From: Candidatus Eremiobacteria bacterium
Lineage (GTDB): Bacteria; Vulcanimicrobiota; Vulcanimicrobiia; Vulcanimicrobiales; Vulcanimicrobiaceae
Length of the DNA: 64,000 bases
Direction of reading: 5' to 3'
NCBI GenBank assembly: GCA_963758295.1
Contig: CAVWUU010000004.1
Coordinates: 672,001-736,000, forward strand
Position numbers: made by a program. Shown piece after piece: positions 21,001 to 27,000 of the stretch. Positions within the stretch are counted from its first letter, which is position 1; each line of letters starts with the position of its first letter.

Positions 21001-24000
21001 TGCTGCGTCGTAACGAAGCCGTTGATGATGTCGAGCGCACCTTCTTGCGAGGCCAACGCCCGTTCCAATTCGGACTTCAATTGCAGCAGGCGGCGATCGT
21101 CTTCGGTTCTCGGGACGTCGGGAAACGCGTTCTTGTCGTTGAGCTGTTTGTGAATCGCCACGACGTTGTCGGCGAGCGGTCCGACCAAATTTTCCATGCG
21201 CATTACGGCGATATCTTGCGATCCCGAACTGCCGTAGCCCATTGCAAAGTTGTACTGCTTGAAAAGATCGGGGCTCTTCGCAATCGTCTTGTCGTTTTGC
21301 AGCATCATTCCGACGGCCGGCGCAATCGTCTTGTGCAGCACGCTGCACATACGGCGCGTATACAGATGAATGATCTGCGGCGGACTCGTTGCTGCCGCGG
21401 CAGTTTTAGCCGTTGCGGGTGCGGGGCTTGGGGCAGCGGCCGAGAGGATCGGCATGCCAAGAAGCGCAGCGGCGATGAGTGCTGCGGGCAGGTGGTTACG
21501 CATAGGTTCCATTCTACGACGGAAACGCACGGCCAGGCCTGCCCGTTACACGGTTCTTACGGTAGGGTTGCTCCCTCGAGCGAGGAGCGGCTAAGGCTTT
21601 TCAGCGTCGCAGCGTCCACCGCGGAGCAGTTGCGCCGGCCCTGGTCTTCCTGGCAGATGCGAACGCCGCGGAAATTTGCGCCGTGGACGTCGGCCCCACG
21701 CAGGTCGGCACACGACGGCTCGTCGTTGTGATTCTGTCCCGTGCCGGTATTGCGCCAGCACAGCACCGCGCCTTGGAAATCGGCATTGCGCAGGTCGGCA
21801 CCGCGGAATTCCACGCCGATCAAGTCCGCGTTCGTGAAGCGCGTTCCAGCCGCTTTCGCGCCGCGCAGATCCGCTCCGATCATATGCACGCCCGAGAGAT
21901 CGAGGCCGTTCAGCGTCGTATCTTGCGCGTCGCAGCCGGTGCAGTTTCCCAGCAAAGCGCGCATCGCCGAATCGCCGCTTGCGACGGTAATTCCGCGCAG
22001 ATCGACACCGGTCGCCCGCACGCCGTCGAGCTTTGCGCCGTCGAGCCGGACGCCGCGTAACGCAACACCGGTGAGATCGGCGCCGCGGAGATCCGCTCCG
22101 CGCAAATCGGCGTCGCGAAGATCCGCACCAACGAGCTTGGCGTTGCGAAAGTTCGTGTTCTGGAGATTGCTTCCGCGAAAGTCCGCGCCTACGTACGCTA
22201 CGCCTTCGAAGTTTTGTCCGTGCATGTCGGCATGCGAGAAATCACATCCCACGCAGTGCGGCGGCGCAGCCGCCTCGGCGCGAAGCATTGGAGTAGAGGG
22301 AACCAGCGCTAGCGCACAAAGCGCAGCGAGCAAGAAACGGGCCATTGTTGGACTCCTTGTTAGTCTCGCATGATGGCACCGCTCATGGCGCTGCCTGTAA
22401 TCGAAGCCTTGGAGAGATCGACACCGCGCAAATCTGCGCCGTTGAAATCACATCCGGTGAACTCCGTATCGTTTACGTGCGCACCGCTGAGCAGTGCGTG
22501 GCGGAAATTCACACCGGTGAACATTGCGCCGGTAAGGTCTGCTCCGCGGAGATCGGCGCCCTCTAAGTTCGCGCCTTCCAGGTGCACGTGGCGCAAGTCC
22601 ATGCCGCGCAAGTTAACATTCGCGAAGCTGCAGCCTTCGCAGGCGCTTAGCACCACGCGCGCTTGGTCCGGTGAAAGCCGGCTTACGTCGATTTCGCATC
22701 CCGTGAGCTGCGCGCCGTCGAAGCGTGCTCCGGCAAGCTGCGCGCCTTTCATGTTGCAGCCTTCCAGATTCGCTCCGGCAAAGGACGCGTTGCGCAGGTC
22801 CGCATCTTTGAAGTTCACGCCCGTGAGCGAAGCGTGGTCGAAATGCGAGCCTTGAAGATTGGCTCGCGCGAAATTCGAGCCTTCCAAGTTGCGATTGCTG
22901 AAGTCTTTGTTCTGTAAATTCGCATTGCCGTAGTCGCAGCCGACGCATTCACCCGCGCTGCTGTGCTGTTGTGCGATCTGCGCAACGCGCAACGATTGCT
23001 TGAGCGAATCGTGTACGAGCTGCGACACGTGTGCGCTCACGGCGGGCGGCGGTACGGCCAAGTCGACCGACGGAACCGCCTTTATGGCCGCATTTGCGGA
23101 GACCAGAGCTTGCGATGCGGTATCGGTCGCCATTTTTACATGTTCTTCGACGACCTTGCGAACGACGGTTTTGGTCTCTTCGGTCTTCGCATTTGCGATC
23201 GGTGCGTTGGGCGCGCCCGGCTTAGCTTTAGGCGCTTCAACCGGCGAGGCTTTGACTGACGGCGCCGGATGTGAGCGTGCAGGGGGAACCGCCGCATGCG
23301 CCGTGGTTTCCCAAGCATCGGCCGGTTGCGGCGCTTGCGGTTCGGTAAACGCAATGCTTGGCGTCATCGTGCGCAGCAGGAAGAAAATCGCGAGCAGCGC
23401 CACGCTGACCGACGCCGCGATACCGGGTGCAATCGATGAGCCGATCGCGCGCCCCGTGCGCAGCAAACGCTCGATACGAATCGAGATGTTTTTGCGAGTG
23501 ACGAACACGCCGGGTGCCGGGACCGCGCGATGCGGCCACGCCGTCATTTCGGCCATCTTCGTCAGGCAGAAGGCGTAGGGACGAACTTGTCCGGTGAGTT
23601 GCAGCACGAAGTCGTCGCACGCAACTTCCCGCTCGATGTCGAGCTGGCGCGCGATGAACCACACCGCCGGATTGAAGAACAACAACGCCGAGGCAATGCG
23701 CTGCAGACTATTCGTCCAATCGTCGGAACGCAGTAAGTGCGCGAGTTCGTGCAGGCTGATTTGGTCGACTTCGGCCGGATCGAGTGAATGCACGAGGTGC
23801 GACGGCAGGAGAATCATCGCGTCGAAGAGCCCGATTGCGACCGGCACTTCGATATCGTCCGAGACGCATAGGCGAACGTCGCGGTGGCCCTTGAGGGCGG
23901 CGTCCCAACGCGGCATGGCATCGCGGTAGTCTACCGCGAGCGGCAACGCGTCGCGCTTGAGCCGTTCCAACGCCATCAGCGCAATTCCAAGGCGCACGAG

Positions 24001-27000
24001 CACTACGAGCGACGCCACGAGCCAGAGCGCGAAGACGACGGCCGCAACGAGCGTCGGCACTTTCACGTTGAGCGAATGCGCGGCTGGAGTGGCGTTCGTA
24101 GAAACGTTGGTCGACGCCGTCAACGACGAAGCTTTCGGTTGCGCCGACGTATGGGTCTCACGCGTCTTTACGGGCGGTGCGGCGAGATGCACGCCGTGCG
24201 TCTTCGGTTGCGCAACGTAATGTGCCGGCCCGGACGGCGTCGAGATCGTCCGGTGCGCCGTACCCGTTGCCGGCGTCTCAACCGTAACGCGAGAAAGGCT
24301 CGTGGCGACCGGGACTACGATCACCGCGCACAGCGCGATCGCCCACACGGCATATCGCGTACTGGCATTTGCTTTGCCGAAGACGCGGAGCGCAAGCCAA
24401 GCGACAAACGCGATCAACGCACCTTGCCACAGGCCGTTAATGAGGATCGCGATGGCAATGCGCGCGGCCGAATCAAAAAACGGAAGCCACGACATTTAGG
24501 CCTCTTCTTCGTAACGTTCGATGAGCGAGCGCAGGCGCGCCAGCTCATCATCGGAGGGACGCTCGTTTTCGATGAGGCGCAGCGCGAGAGCGCCCGTGTT
24601 GTCGCCGAAGAATTTCGAAACGACTTGCTTCACCGCGGACTGCGCCGCGGCTTCGCGGGCGATCAGCGGATGATAGATGTACGCGCGCCCGGCTTCTTCG
24701 TGGCCGACGTGCCCCTTCTGCTCGAGGATGCGAAGGGTCGTCAGGACGGTATTATAGGCGACCGGCGGCGGAGGCATGGCTCCGGCGACTTCGGCAACCG
24801 TCCCGCGCCCGAGGCGCCAAAGCACCTCCATGATGCGCAGTTCGCCCTCGGTTAAGGTCGGCGATTTCTTTCGAGCCACTTCGTCTAGCCTCCATCCGCG
24901 CGTAGGCGGTCCACTCTTAATTCCTTAGGAGTAGGCTACCACCGGAGGGGCGACTTGTCAACTAATACGTTAGTTGTCCGCGCTGGCTTGCTCGAGCTGC
25001 TGCTTTTCTTCGCCCGAGATGACCATCGTCAGATCAAGCATGATGATCAGACGGTCGTTCAGCTTGCCGACGCCCTGAATGTACTCCGTCCCCACGCCGG
25101 CGATCATTTCGGGTGCATCCTCAACGTTCTCGATGGGGATGTTCAACACTTCGCTGACGCTGTCGACCACCATACCGACTCGCTTGCTTCCGATTTCCGT
25201 GACGATGATGCGCGTGCTCTTGGTCGGGTCGATGCGGCTCATGCCGAAGCGCGTGCGCAGATCGATGATGGGAATCAGCTGGCCGCGCAGGTTGATGACG
25301 CCTTCCATGAACCGCGGCGCGCGCGGCACGTGCGTGATCTCGACCATACGGATGATTTCCTGAACCTGCGAGATGTCGACGCCGTACTCTTCACTTCCGA
25401 GCTGGAACGAGACGACCTGAATAAGCTCGCCCGAAAGCTGCTGTCTGCGATCTTCCTTAACGTCTGTCATCATGATTTAGACTCCTGAAAATTCCGCGCG
25501 GGCAACCTTGCCGCCTTGATATGCTTCGCTGACCAGGGAATGAACGTCGATGATGAGCGAGATCGACCCGTTGCCGAGAATCGTCGCTCCCGAAATACCG
25601 GCAATACGTCCGACAACGTCGGAAAGCGGTTTGATGACGATTTCTTGCTCGCCTTCGAAAGAATCGACGACGAGGCCGACCTGGCGACCCTGCAATCCGA
25701 CGATAACGATCATGACTTTCTGCGGATCGCGTTCGCCGCCGAGTTCGAAGAACTCCGCGATGCGCACGAGCGGCACGACTTGTCCGCGCAGCGTGATGAC
25801 CTCGTTGCCGTGCACCGTGCGCACGTCGGCCATTTCGACGCGTTGCGACTCGATAACCGAATCGAGCGGAATCGCGTACAACTCTTCGGCGACACGCACC
25901 AGCAGCGCCTGAATGATTGCAAGCGTCAGCGGAAGCTTGATCGTGAAACGCGTACCTTGTCCCGGCACCGTATCGACGTCGAAAACGCCCTTCAAACGCG
26001 TGATGTTTCGCTTGACGACGTCCATGCCGACGCCGCGTCCGCTGACGTCGGAAACAACGTCTGCAGTCGAAAAGCCGGGCGTGAAGATCAATTCGACGAT
26101 TTCGCGATCGCTCAAACGATCGTCCGCTGAAATCAACCCCTGCTTAATCCCGCGGGCACGTACTTTTTCCAGATTGATGCCGGCGCCGTCGTCGGAGACT
26201 TCGATGATGATCTGATTGCCTTCGTGATAGGCGTTCAGCTTAATCGTTCCGGCGCGCGGCTTGCCGAGACGCTGCGCGCTCGTCGGGCGCTTCAATGCCA
26301 TGATCGACGTTGTTCCGCAGCAAGTGCATGAGCGGCTCGCCCACTTCGTCGACGATCGTCTTGTCCAGATCCGTTTCCGCACCGGAAATCTCCAATTGCA
26401 CTTCTTTGCCGCGCGCTTTAGCCACGTCGCGAACGAGGCGCGGGAACCGGTCGAACACTTGTCCGATCGGAACCATGCGCACTTTCATGATCGACTCTTG
26501 AATTTCGTTGGTCGTGCGCGCGAGCAGGGCCGAGCTATCCACCAAATCTTTGGCGAGCGGCGCCATGATCGCCGTCGAGGCGTCGAGGCCTTTATCTTGC
26601 ATCAAACGCTCGAGCGTATTCGCGATATCCGAAATACGCGTGCGGTTGATTACGAGTTCGCCGACGAGATTCAAGAGGCCGTCGAGACGCTCGATGTCTA
26701 CGCGAATCGTTTGATGGATGTTGCCTTTGGAAGCTTTAGGCGCAACCGGCTTTTCAACGCGAGCGACCGGCGCAGCCGCAACCGGCTCAGGCGGAAGGTC
26801 TTTGATGAACGGCTCAACGGCGGCGGGCGCTATCGGCTCCGTGAATGCACCGCCGTTTGCCTGCGCAAGAAGGCGCGCGACTTCGGCTTCGAACGCTTCA
26901 ACGTCGGCCGAGCTCGCCTCTTCGGGAGCGTCGGCAGCGGCGAGTGCTTCGAACGAATGCTCTTCGCCGGTGCGTCCATCGATCACGTGCGCCGTCTCTT

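Follow-up and report, generated by a model that had tools for sequence, protein, structure and literature searches.

Staphylococci sense penicillin by means of a membrane switch in which the repressor is cut. Eremiobacterota soil bacteria carry a switch of this kind whose outward-facing sensor is a pentapeptide-repeat helix, which raises the question of what the helix detects and which genes it governs. We examined this for one locus in the window, the stretch of 64,000 nucleotides analyzed here (Table 1). Judging from sequence, the switch appears to control an outer-membrane channel and an exported copy of the sensor helix. Since its architecture varies that of the known BlaI-BlaR switch, the surprise is moderate. 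Replacement of the penicillin-binding domain is in itself ordinary, with approximately 94% of M56 proteins lacking it (PMC13492132).

Two long-open questions nevertheless meet at this locus, namely the cue of these BlaR-like proteins and the ligand of exported pentapeptide helices. The protease to which the solenoid is fused is predicted to gate a sharply defined promoter, so a four-part reporter comprising the box promoter, blaI, the sensor, and the exported paralogue would turn both questions into a screen.

Table 1. Coordinates of the features in the window, with the evidence for each
Feature	Position	Strand	Evidence
Operator 1, 18-bp palindrome, core CTAA-CGTA-TTAG running into the -35 hexamer	24959-24976 (12-bp core box 24962-24973)		Palindrome
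Predicted sigma70-type promoter, TTGACA (24956-24961), 17 bp, TAGCCT	24933-24961	-	Alignment with related promoters
Operator 2, 18-bp palindrome over the likely transcription start	24914-24931 (core box 24917-24928)		45 bp downstream of operator 1
blaI, BlaI/MecI/CopY-family repressor, 127 aa, no cysteines	24496-24879	-	PF03965 Penicillinase_R, 101.8 bits (cut-off 22.6)
M56 sensor-protease, 711 aa	22360-24495	-	PF05569 Peptidase_M56, 109.6 bits (cut-off 31); PF00805 Pentapeptide, 157.6 bits
Gluzincin zinc site, H249-E-L-A-H253 and E290-V-A-C-D294	23614-23751	-	Invariant in alignment
Sensor solenoid, two pentapeptide modules with a helix between	22363-22953	-	Each module opened by CxxC (C517/C520, C619/C622)
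Exported 262-aa pentapeptide protein, paralogous to the sensor domain	21557-22345	-	35% identical to that domain (E 1e-31)
Probable fourth operon gene, exported protein of no known family	20625-21530 (start perhaps ATG at 21503)	-	Homologues downstream of the operon in many relatives

A BlaI repressor and an M56 protease with a pentapeptide tail

An earlier note had described a BlaI repressor paired with an M56 protease that ends in a pentapeptide domain, and all three profile scores bear this out. The blaI product belongs to the Penicillinase_R family, and MecI/BlaI structures align with it (E 1e-5 to 3e-3), placing R101-L102 opposite N101-F102 of MecI. The blaI gene abuts that of the sensor, in which four main hydrophobic segments were found in BlaR1 order (hydropathy peaks at 13, 49, 149, and 355, with a weaker one at 217), together with a predicted cytoplasmic zinc protease, an Ala/Pro/Val-rich linker of about 130 aa (128), and the pentapeptide solenoid. 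This topology rests on hydropathy and alignment, as AlphaFold modeled the protease half too poorly to be relied on (pLDDT < 50, single sequence). The BlaR1 structure 8exp aligns with the sensor (E 1.3e-7), with H249 and E290 opposite H201 and E242 of BlaR1. Residues H249, E250, H253, E290, and D294 are invariant in 24 of 24 rows of the sensor alignment, and the protein is a Peptidase M56 member by its PF05569 score, HEXXH, and EXXXD. It was noted separately that a CopY/TcrY copper repressor identity fails for BlaI, as TIGR02698 scored 51.3 against a cut-off of 121.95 bits and the cysteine-free protein is devoid of the C-terminal cysteine motif.

The solenoid was modeled by AlphaFold2 as a beta-helix at residues 521-710 (pLDDT mostly 81-96), and the model matches HetL, AlbG, and MfpA at E 2e-10 to 3e-9. 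Its CxxC pairs lie 102 aa apart, a spacing kept in 62 of the 68 detected sensors, and the four cysteines are invariant in the sensor alignment; the linker is poorly conserved in both length and sequence. Pentapeptide-tailed sensors form one clade (96/97). The exported paralogue, which carries an N-terminal hydrophobic, signal-like segment, has two CxxC motifs 104 aa apart, the second opening a second module mid-protein, so that both solenoids follow a common two-module CxxC plan. Membership of the pentapeptide-repeat proteins is given by PF00805 scores of 157.6 (sensor) and 145.5 bits. The product of the probable fourth gene, whose homologues lie downstream of the operon in many relatives, gave no Pfam or NCBIfam match and a best Atlas score of 0.79.

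We considered whether the locus is an antibiotic-resistance switch, either for beta-lactams or for Qnr/MfpA-like quinolone protection, and regard this as extremely improbable. What speaks for it is the family names and a PF00144 serine hydrolase gene that heads the operon of one paralogous blaI under a related YTAG-N4-CTAG box. However, the sensor contains no transpeptidase domain (PF00905), and all BlaR1, MecR1, Qnr, and MfpA models scored far under their cut-offs on the window proteins: blaR1_generic reached 85.7 against 400, over the protease part only, Qnr 58.1 and 54.9 against 240, and MfpA 48.3 and 56.1 against 360. The pentapeptide proteins, exported or membrane-tethered as predicted, could probably not reach gyrase because of the export signals that they carry. 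The serine beta-lactamase-family (PF00144) protein of this genome, used as the single tblastn query, found no match in the box-bearing loci searched, in keeping with the earlier statement that the operator marks no beta-lactamase.

Operators flanking the promoter

The operator YTAA-N4-TTAR had been placed against the -35 box, and the core box of operator 1 indeed abuts TTGACA. The first TAA of this operator doubles as the stop codon of cheW. A box with TTGAC precedes blaI in 80 of 80 related loci in the loose form and in 73 in the strict form, at least two boxes are present in 70/80, and operators 1 and 2 are spaced by 44-47 bp in related loci. These conserved palindromes support the predicted binding of BlaI to an operator at its own promoter. 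A consensus promoter scanner did not list the blaI promoter, whose -10 element matches just 3/6 positions; among 35 aligned promoters, the T, A, and T at the -10 positions recur in 30, 29, and 29.

The bare motif was not enriched in the genome (20 sites, compared to 5-21 for other spacers of 0-12), while the TTGAC-anchored box was, with 4 sites against 0 for the reversed control in this genome and 122 against 6 across 101 family genomes. With genes called crudely, 15 of these bare-motif sites in the genome fall outside coding regions, as had been stated, with 11 rather than the previously counted 10 at five promoters. One more box site falls within the 16S rRNA gene. The five boxed promoters are those of blaI, C1:239031 (an exported pentapeptide protein; -35 box with one mismatch), C1:403006, C4:588573, and C4:913574 (a 67-aa ORF), and we infer from position and content that they correspond to the genes named in the earlier note.

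Genes under the shared operator

Among the 80 related loci, blaI was found in 80, the fused sensor in 72, a separate pentapeptide ORF after the sensor in 66, and a CBM9-fold/beta-barrel gene in 60. The exported paralogue is absent beside the sensor in 14 of the 80, 6 of which stop at a contig edge, so it is not strictly required locally. In 92 genomes, among which kin are not independent, box and sensor were both present in 55, both missing in 28, and found singly in 5 (sensor only) and 4 (box only).

We assessed the genes behind 54 box sites away from the sensor gene. These comprised barrel genes (23), an unnamed FxGWGP peptide of about 35 aa (10, with MsrA next in 6), DUF4097-like proteins (4), small exported ORFs (4), pentapeptide proteins (3), orphan blaI (2), and other or unclear genes (8). 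Most encode exported or envelope proteins, and neither a beta-lactamase nor PBP2a was seen among the first genes. The claimed regulon, made up of exported pentapeptide proteins and large barrels, is found at boxed promoters of this genome and at remote sites in relatives, where it is larger than described, adding DUF4097 proteins, MsrA, and the FxGWGP peptide. The peptide gene turns up upstream of blaI and of GntR repressor genes, and also under boxes that stand alone. For a soil phylum with few cultured members, the operator outlines a putative regulon, and it links a small unannotated peptide and an uncharacterized family of outer-membrane barrels to one control system.

The barrel is the commonest target, and its homologues adjoin blaI in relatives far more often than the few loci first reported. 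The DUF5916 designation was mostly not borne out: the two barrel proteins stay under the PF19313 cut-off of 22.6, at 16.1 and 19.1 bits over 40-56 of 572 positions, and one of five scanned homologues passed (24.7). DUF5916 is a weak sequence label for proteins predicted to comprise a CBM9-fold domain and a beta-barrel. In structure comparison, the N-terminal beta-sandwich of the model resembles CBM9 entries (188 aligned at Z 19.6 and 173 aligned at Z 18.1, both with rmsd 3.0), Foldseek returned a CBM9 match at E about 1e-5, and the remainder matches outer-membrane barrels at Z about 12. Similar to DUF5916/CBM9-like outer-membrane proteins, they also show a weak CBM9_1 match; they differ in falling mostly under the Pfam cut-off, covering under a tenth of the profile, and carrying a CxxC loop in the boxed subfamily. 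In the literature searched, no paper came up under the name DUF5916.

This fold and the frequency of the target could point to substrate-induced uptake, in which the barrel would import a glycan, the sensor solenoid would detect it in the periplasm, and the exported paralogue would bind or shuttle it. We consider this unlikely, as the first genes behind the 54 remote boxes showed us none for a glycoside hydrolase, a sugar transporter, or catabolism, and MsrA, DUF4097, and the small peptide would be out of place in such a system.

A thiol or metal (Cu/Zn) sensor, with the CxxC pairs as sensing chemistry and a regulon handling periplasmic metal or oxidant stress, seems quite improbable. The sensor has CxxC without exception, the exported paralogue carries it as well, and so does a plug-like loop of boxed barrel proteins (22 of 23 rows, absent from the two unboxed paralogues of this genome), although these rows were chosen for closeness and may share it by descent. 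The MsrA genes would agree with such a sensor, as would the copper response of the BlaI-family pair PetR/PetP (10.1101/2020.07.31.226407). YjbI, an exported pentapeptide protein of Caulobacter, is destroyed on Zn or Cu stress, but its Zn-induced turnover does not need the cysteines (PMC12864828). A CxxC disulfide bracket is described as structural in the pentapeptide protein Rfr23 (PMC8145042), and among the first targets behind boxes we saw no gene for metal efflux or chaperones.

The solenoid might instead span the periplasm on its linker and read the state of the barrel directly, much as FecR reads the state of FecA. The linker is long enough to suggest such contact, sensor and barrel co-occur (54 of 92 genomes with both, 26 with neither, 6 and 6 with one), the barrel gene directly follows the sensor in some loci where the exported paralogue is missing, and both paralogous sensors of the genome end in TonB_C-like domains. 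We judge direct contact to have a slim chance, since the linker is so variable and the barrel family also occurs without a sensor, in one related genome and in others.

A proposed envelope-surveillance loop

We propose, with about even chances of being right, a self-repressed and protease-gated circuit for envelope surveillance, with one cue read by both the sensor and its exported paralogue. BlaI dimers on the two palindromes would block transcription of blaI, the sensor, and the exported pentapeptide gene, and would also repress remote promoters with the same box. The solenoid would be held in the periplasm on the linker; on meeting its cue, the cytoplasmic protease would be released to cut BlaI near residues 101-102, by analogy with BlaR1 (PMC9834060). 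Derepression would yield the exported solenoid and the CBM9-fold/beta-barrel protein, and in relatives also DUF4097 proteins, the FxGWGP peptide, and MsrA. The cue would most likely be a state or component of the disturbed outer envelope, bound by the exported paralogue too, whose synthesis would switch the sensor off again.

Gene content, motifs, conservation of the operator, and the classes of target were observed directly. Repression, topology, and cleavage are very probable from knowledge of the family, while the cue and the feedback role are the weakest parts of the explanation. The intact gluzincin site, the BlaR1-like layout, and the operators flanking a conserved promoter argue for such a circuit, as do the co-occurrence of box and sensor, a 69%-identical barrel gene with no upstream box in a genome that has no sensor match, the mostly exported or envelope targets, the common CxxC plan, and the precedents of YjbI and CenIR. 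Against it, the modeled CBM fold of the commonest target fits nutrient uptake as well. In a more far-reaching form, which we regard as doubtful, sensor solenoid, exported paralogue, and CBM9-barrel, all with CxxC, would be a trans-envelope module reporting thiol, metal, or integrity state to the repressor-cutting protease, and the FxGWGP peptide a new lineage-wide envelope-response regulator. If this held, the fusion would be the first direct transcriptional read-out of binding by an exported pentapeptide helix.

Comparison with known systems

The sensor domain of BlaR1 is homologous to class D beta-lactamases. The present locus resembles BlaI-BlaR1 and MecI-MecR1 of Staphylococcus aureus and Bacillus licheniformis in this relation of a sensor domain to a regulated exported protein, in its winged-helix repressor beside a four-TM M56 gluzincin, and in its predicted self-repression. 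It differs in having a solenoid on a linker in place of the penicillin-binding domain, another operator, a diderm host, an outer-membrane target, and no beta-lactamase found under the box.

Non-canonical pairs without a transpeptidase domain and with a small regulon are likewise known, including CenIR of Clostridioides difficile (PMC13492132), PvmSR of Pseudomonas aeruginosa (10.64898/2026.08.03.742534), and PetRP of Synechocystis (10.1101/2020.07.31.226407). According to PMC13492132, CenIR acts mainly on a neighboring gene for a small exported protein, and the system points to envelope homeostasis; the domain names in its legend for the nine common architectures include no pentapeptide tail, nor do two of its supplements. 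The CenR tail is disordered, and PvmS and PetP have no outer domain, whereas here a folded, conserved repeat domain has an exported paralogue.

With export here predicted, the solenoids may be likened to YjbI/PerA of Caulobacter crescentus, an exported quadrilateral beta-helix with cysteine pairs at its ends, although every pentapeptide protein matches every other. As outlined in PMC12864828, YjbI silences envelope-stress signaling, which replenishes it, and this transcription controls outer-membrane proteins, a feedback loop of the type proposed here. YjbI is a free outer-membrane protein signaling via the two-component systems UzcSR and ChvGI, whereas the protease of the present locus carries a fused, paralogous solenoid.

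Related sensors and BlaI paralogues

The same box lies upstream of blaI genes paired with sensors of other kinds, with tails of helical repeats, HEAT repeats, or a DUF2807/GIN domain, and upstream of orphan blaI genes. Shared in this way, the box belongs to the BlaI clade and not to the pentapeptide sensor, and its targets cannot be assigned to that sensor exclusively; contrary to the earlier suggestion, the regulon is not pentapeptide-specific. It was further noted that the genome holds three blaI genes, not the two counted earlier, and a fourth, orphan M56 gene. The previously raised concern over shared sites stands and extends to two BlaI paralogues, whose recognition helices are nearly identical, suggesting that they could cross-regulate.

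The sensor operon and its operator

We found that the pentapeptide-sensor BlaI/M56 system is real, conserved and well defined. The window covers C4:672001-736000 of the genome under study (3.03 Mb, 82% complete). In it, four abutting genes lie on the minus strand directly past cheW, namely blaI, the M56 protease gene, a pentapeptide gene and an ORF (Table). An Atlas search with the last of these returned a best score of 0.79, a weak lead. The zinc-site residues of the M56 protein (H249/E250/H253 and E290/D294) were invariant among 24 aligned orthologues, and in alignment they match the positions of the HEXXH and EXXXD motifs of BlaR1. 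Its hydropathy profile has four main segments in the same order as in BlaR1, followed by a 128-aa Ala/Pro/Val-rich linker; because of this layout, the C-terminal domain would, by analogy with BlaR1, face the periplasm.

Table. Coordinates of the BlaI/M56 systems, box-bearing target genes and FxGWGP peptide ORFs (numbers without prefix, window; C1, C2 and C4, contigs of the genome under study; L171, a locus from a relative)
Feature	Position	Strand	Description
blaI	24496-24879	-	PF03965 101.8 bits; MecI and BlaI structures alignable
M56 protein, 711 aa	22360-24495	-	PF05569 109.6 bits, PF00805 157.6 bits
Pentapeptide protein, 262 aa	21557-22345	-	Signal-like N-terminus, two CxxC
ORF, 301 aa	20625-21530	-	No known family; fourth abutting gene
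Further BlaI/M56 pairs (two)	C2:259937-262144; C1:430625-434345		TonB_C-like tails; YTAG-N4-CTAG against TTGAC
Orphan M56, 339 aa	C4:366708-367727		No outer domain; blaI not adjacent
Exported pentapeptide	C1:239031		Box site(s)
Large exported proteins (two)	C1:403006; C4:588573		Box site(s)
ORF, 67 aa	C4:913574		Box site(s)
FxGWGP peptide, examples	L171:3465-3581		And 15 more loci
FxGWGP ORFs, genome under study	C1:279628-279735; C1:681790-681924; C1:271125-271286; C4:429687-429818

In a single-sequence AlphaFold model, whose protease half did not fold and is unreliable, the sensor C-terminal domain was a confident beta-helix of two modules with a helix between them. A CxxC motif opens each module, and the two are spaced by 102 residues in 62 of the 68 sensors detected. 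The exported paralogue encoded next to the sensor follows the same plan with its motifs 104 residues apart, and the sensor domain is 35% identical to it. In a 38-row tree, 20 sensor domains formed one side of a branch with support of 96/97; the duplication is therefore old and does not reflect local copying over and over. A third exported pentapeptide paralogue (C4:659501-660265) has three CxxC motifs and lacks an upstream box.

Palindromes were found ahead of blaI at window positions 24962-24973 and 24917-24928, the first of which continues into TTGACA, followed by 17 bp and TAGCCT. A matrix built on 56 related sites widened the palindrome to 18 bp, so that it takes in the opening half (three bases) of the -35 hexamer. 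The bare core, YTAA-N4-TTAR, was rejected as proof of a motif since the genome shows no excess of it (20 sites vs 5-21 for other spacers). The anchored box, in which the core abuts TTGAC, was enriched: of 101 family genomes, 61 together carry 122 matches, vs 6 for the reversed pattern. The idea that the box merely reflects the cheW stop codon was also rejected, as the box is retained beside different upstream neighbours. It was noted that the blaI leader (24880-24913) contains a short inverted repeat across the ribosome-binding site, which is not kept in most relatives.

Related loci numbered 351. In the best 80 of them, which are kin, overlap a set of 37 distinct loci and do not count as independent trials, blaI and a loose box with TTGAC were always present; 73 had the strict form and 70 had at least two boxes. 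Of these 80 loci, 72 have a fused sensor, four have one cut by a contig end and four have one broken between frames; 66 have a further, separate pentapeptide ORF after the sensor.

Distribution of the sensor and the box

Of 92 genomes, a set that leaves out unpublished ones, 55 have the anchored box together with a close M56 match, 28 have neither, and 5 and 4 are discordant. Across the phylum sample, with a limit of E <= 1e-25, the sensor protein had matches in 35 of the 44 sampled genomes from its own family, in 5 of 6 from a second family of the class and in 0 of 70 others. The sensor may have spread past the phylum: many full-length relatives with no taxonomy attached came out of a profile search against cluster representatives, and among 10 such clusters looked up, one had a taxon, Eremiobacterota. 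Four loci titled Alphaproteobacteria or Acidiferrales/Acidoferrum (L142, L144, L152 and L200) were rejected as examples of such spread; these are probably mislabelled Eremiobacterota, because the genes flanking them show 55-86% identity to those of the study genome.

The box was not borne out as a mark specific to pentapeptide sensors. It also precedes blaI genes with helical-repeat or short-tail sensors (L113-L118; 100/98 in the BlaI tree), HEAT-like sensors (L221-L223; HEAT_2 passes in L221 only, with two scanned) and a DUF2807/GIN sensor (L217). We therefore conclude that the box marks a BlaI clade, to which several repeat domains, the pentapeptide solenoid among them, are joined, and that repeat domains have been swapped repeatedly onto one BlaI/M56 switch. 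In three loci (L074, L110 and L112), a boxed blaI without an M56 gene in the surrounding sequence examined is followed by an FxGWGP peptide, with a DUF4097-like gene in between in L074.

The earlier note had reported a second BlaI paralogue with a related box. The related box was recovered; the number was too low, since the genome has three blaI-M56 pairs plus an orphan M56 gene. The BlaI proteins of the TonB_C-tailed pairs cluster together (100/99), and this group and the 100/98 group are the only ones relied on in the BlaI tree, where sensor-tail labels come from a rough pattern and are wrong for several pentapeptide sensors. Cross-talk between the window's BlaI and these two paralogues may occur, because their recognition helices differ at just two or three positions. 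The operon of the C1 pair begins with a PF00144 serine hydrolase gene, and no homologue of this protein was found in the box-bearing loci searched; a role of the pentapeptide system in antibiotic resistance is scarcely credible.

Targets behind the box

Ten of the eleven top-scoring intergenic sites in the genome lie at five promoters, those of blaI and of the four box-bearing targets in the Table. The eleventh, a possible site at C4:871389 (18.1 bits), lies 31 bp before a TPR-containing gene (C4:871420), with TTACAC replacing TTGACA. The five promoters proposed in the earlier note appear to correspond to these, with a different count: it gave them 10 of 15 intergenic sites, and the strict 12-mer places 11 of 15 non-coding sites there, one of the remainder being within 16S rRNA.

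From the 122 anchored sites, 60 were inspected, of which 6 precede second M56 genes and 54 are distant from any listed sensor match. In 23 of these 54, the gene behind the box encodes a large exported barrel protein. An FxGWGP peptide takes this place in 10 (its motif is a variant in one, and MsrA comes next in 6), DUF4097-like proteins and small exported ORFs in 4 each, pentapeptide proteins in 3 and an orphan BlaI in 2, which leaves 8 with other or unclear products.

The genome's own two large boxed proteins had been assigned to the DUF5916 type; both missed the DUF5916 cut-off, and a CBM9 fold and barrel were modelled instead. The model (23 rows, pLDDT 69) places a domain of CBM9 fold (Z 19.6 and 18.1) ahead of a beta-barrel (Z about 12, rmsd about 6), which includes a plug-like stretch of low confidence. 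Glycan-induced uptake, to be weighed beside such a fold, seems rather unlikely. The plug-like stretch carries a CxxC motif in 22 of 23 rows, absent from the genome's two unboxed paralogues; with this pair also present in the sensor modules, thiol or metal sensing through CxxC may be considered and is judged improbable. The barrel gene was present at 60 of the 80 top-ranked related loci, and a relative with no sensor match (G014, 96% complete) carries a barrel gene of 69% identity that lacks an upstream box; direct contact between sensor and barrel appears very unlikely. Small exported ORFs under the box in L059, L089 and L103 have a common L-K-[IV]-I-A-[TH]-V motif, which we take to resemble a TonB box, and a similar stretch occurs in the window's fourth gene (20625-21530).

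The FxGWGP family, found outside the window's operon, comprises unannotated ORFs of 33-44 aa with a ribosome-binding site, synonymously varying codons and, close to the end, an invariant F-x-G-W-G(P). Such a peptide was the first gene before blaI in 16 of the best 80 of 351 loci; it was also encountered behind stand-alone boxes, after orphan blaI, before a DUF4097 gene and, without a box, before GntR repressor genes, including in the study genome. DUF4097 and YtrA-type GntR operons are part of envelope-stress responses. The profile matched in 21 of 23 genomes from the family, in all 4 from the rest of the class and, only weakly, in 3 of 53 others, and the peptide is largely restricted to one class. 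Members scanned had no match in Pfam or NCBIfam, and an Atlas search gave a weak lead (best 0.88). The peptide could be trans-acting or a leader peptide.

Proposed mechanism and relation to known systems

Two BlaI dimers would repress at the promoter and M56 cleavage would release this repression, a scheme we hold to be highly probable because of the promoter geometry and of BlaR1 as described in PMC9834060. For the cue we favour, with roughly even confidence, a disturbed-envelope signal that the exported paralogue would also read, closing a negative loop, because most of the targets are exported or belong to the envelope, one of them is paralogous to the sensor and there is a precedent in Caulobacter YjbI. 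According to PMC12864828, which describes no BlaI system, YjbI is exported, forms a pentapeptide helix bearing cysteine pairs and silences envelope-stress signalling; Zn, Cu, sucrose or acid stress destroys it and the response replenishes it.

The window system belongs to the BlaI/M56 family and by analogy would work like BlaI/BlaR1, but its sensor is not a member of canonical BlaR1. According to the portions of PMC13492132 consulted, a penicillin-binding domain occurs in only about 6% of some 15,000 M56 proteins, with 254 architectures, and two of its supplements gave no match for pentapeptide. Other atypical BlaI/M56 cases, as outlined in excerpts, are PvmSR (10.64898/2026.08.03.742534) and PetRP (10.1101/2020.07.31.226407); the terms 'M56' and 'peptidase' are absent from the portion seen of a pentapeptide review (PMC8145042). 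Database auto-annotation labels the sensor proteins as YjbI-pentapeptide plus beta-lactamase signal transducer, and the fusion is therefore already in databases. In the literature titles and abstract openings searched, mostly of papers outside subscription journals, neither the system nor its operator or regulon was found described.

Other features of the window

A TTGACA-17-TAGGAT promoter at 20517-20545, whose spacer contains the palindrome GAAC-N4-GTTC, precedes three genes (19756-20508, 18316-19755 and 14468-17830). These are presumably imuA, imuB and dnaE2, and we take the palindrome to resemble a LexA box. At 33629-34720, a tandem 49-bp unit (4.9 copies) is followed by a 96-bp unit (10.4 copies, 95% identity), an array that we assume to be REP-like, and a fragment akin to it was noted at 49996-50047.
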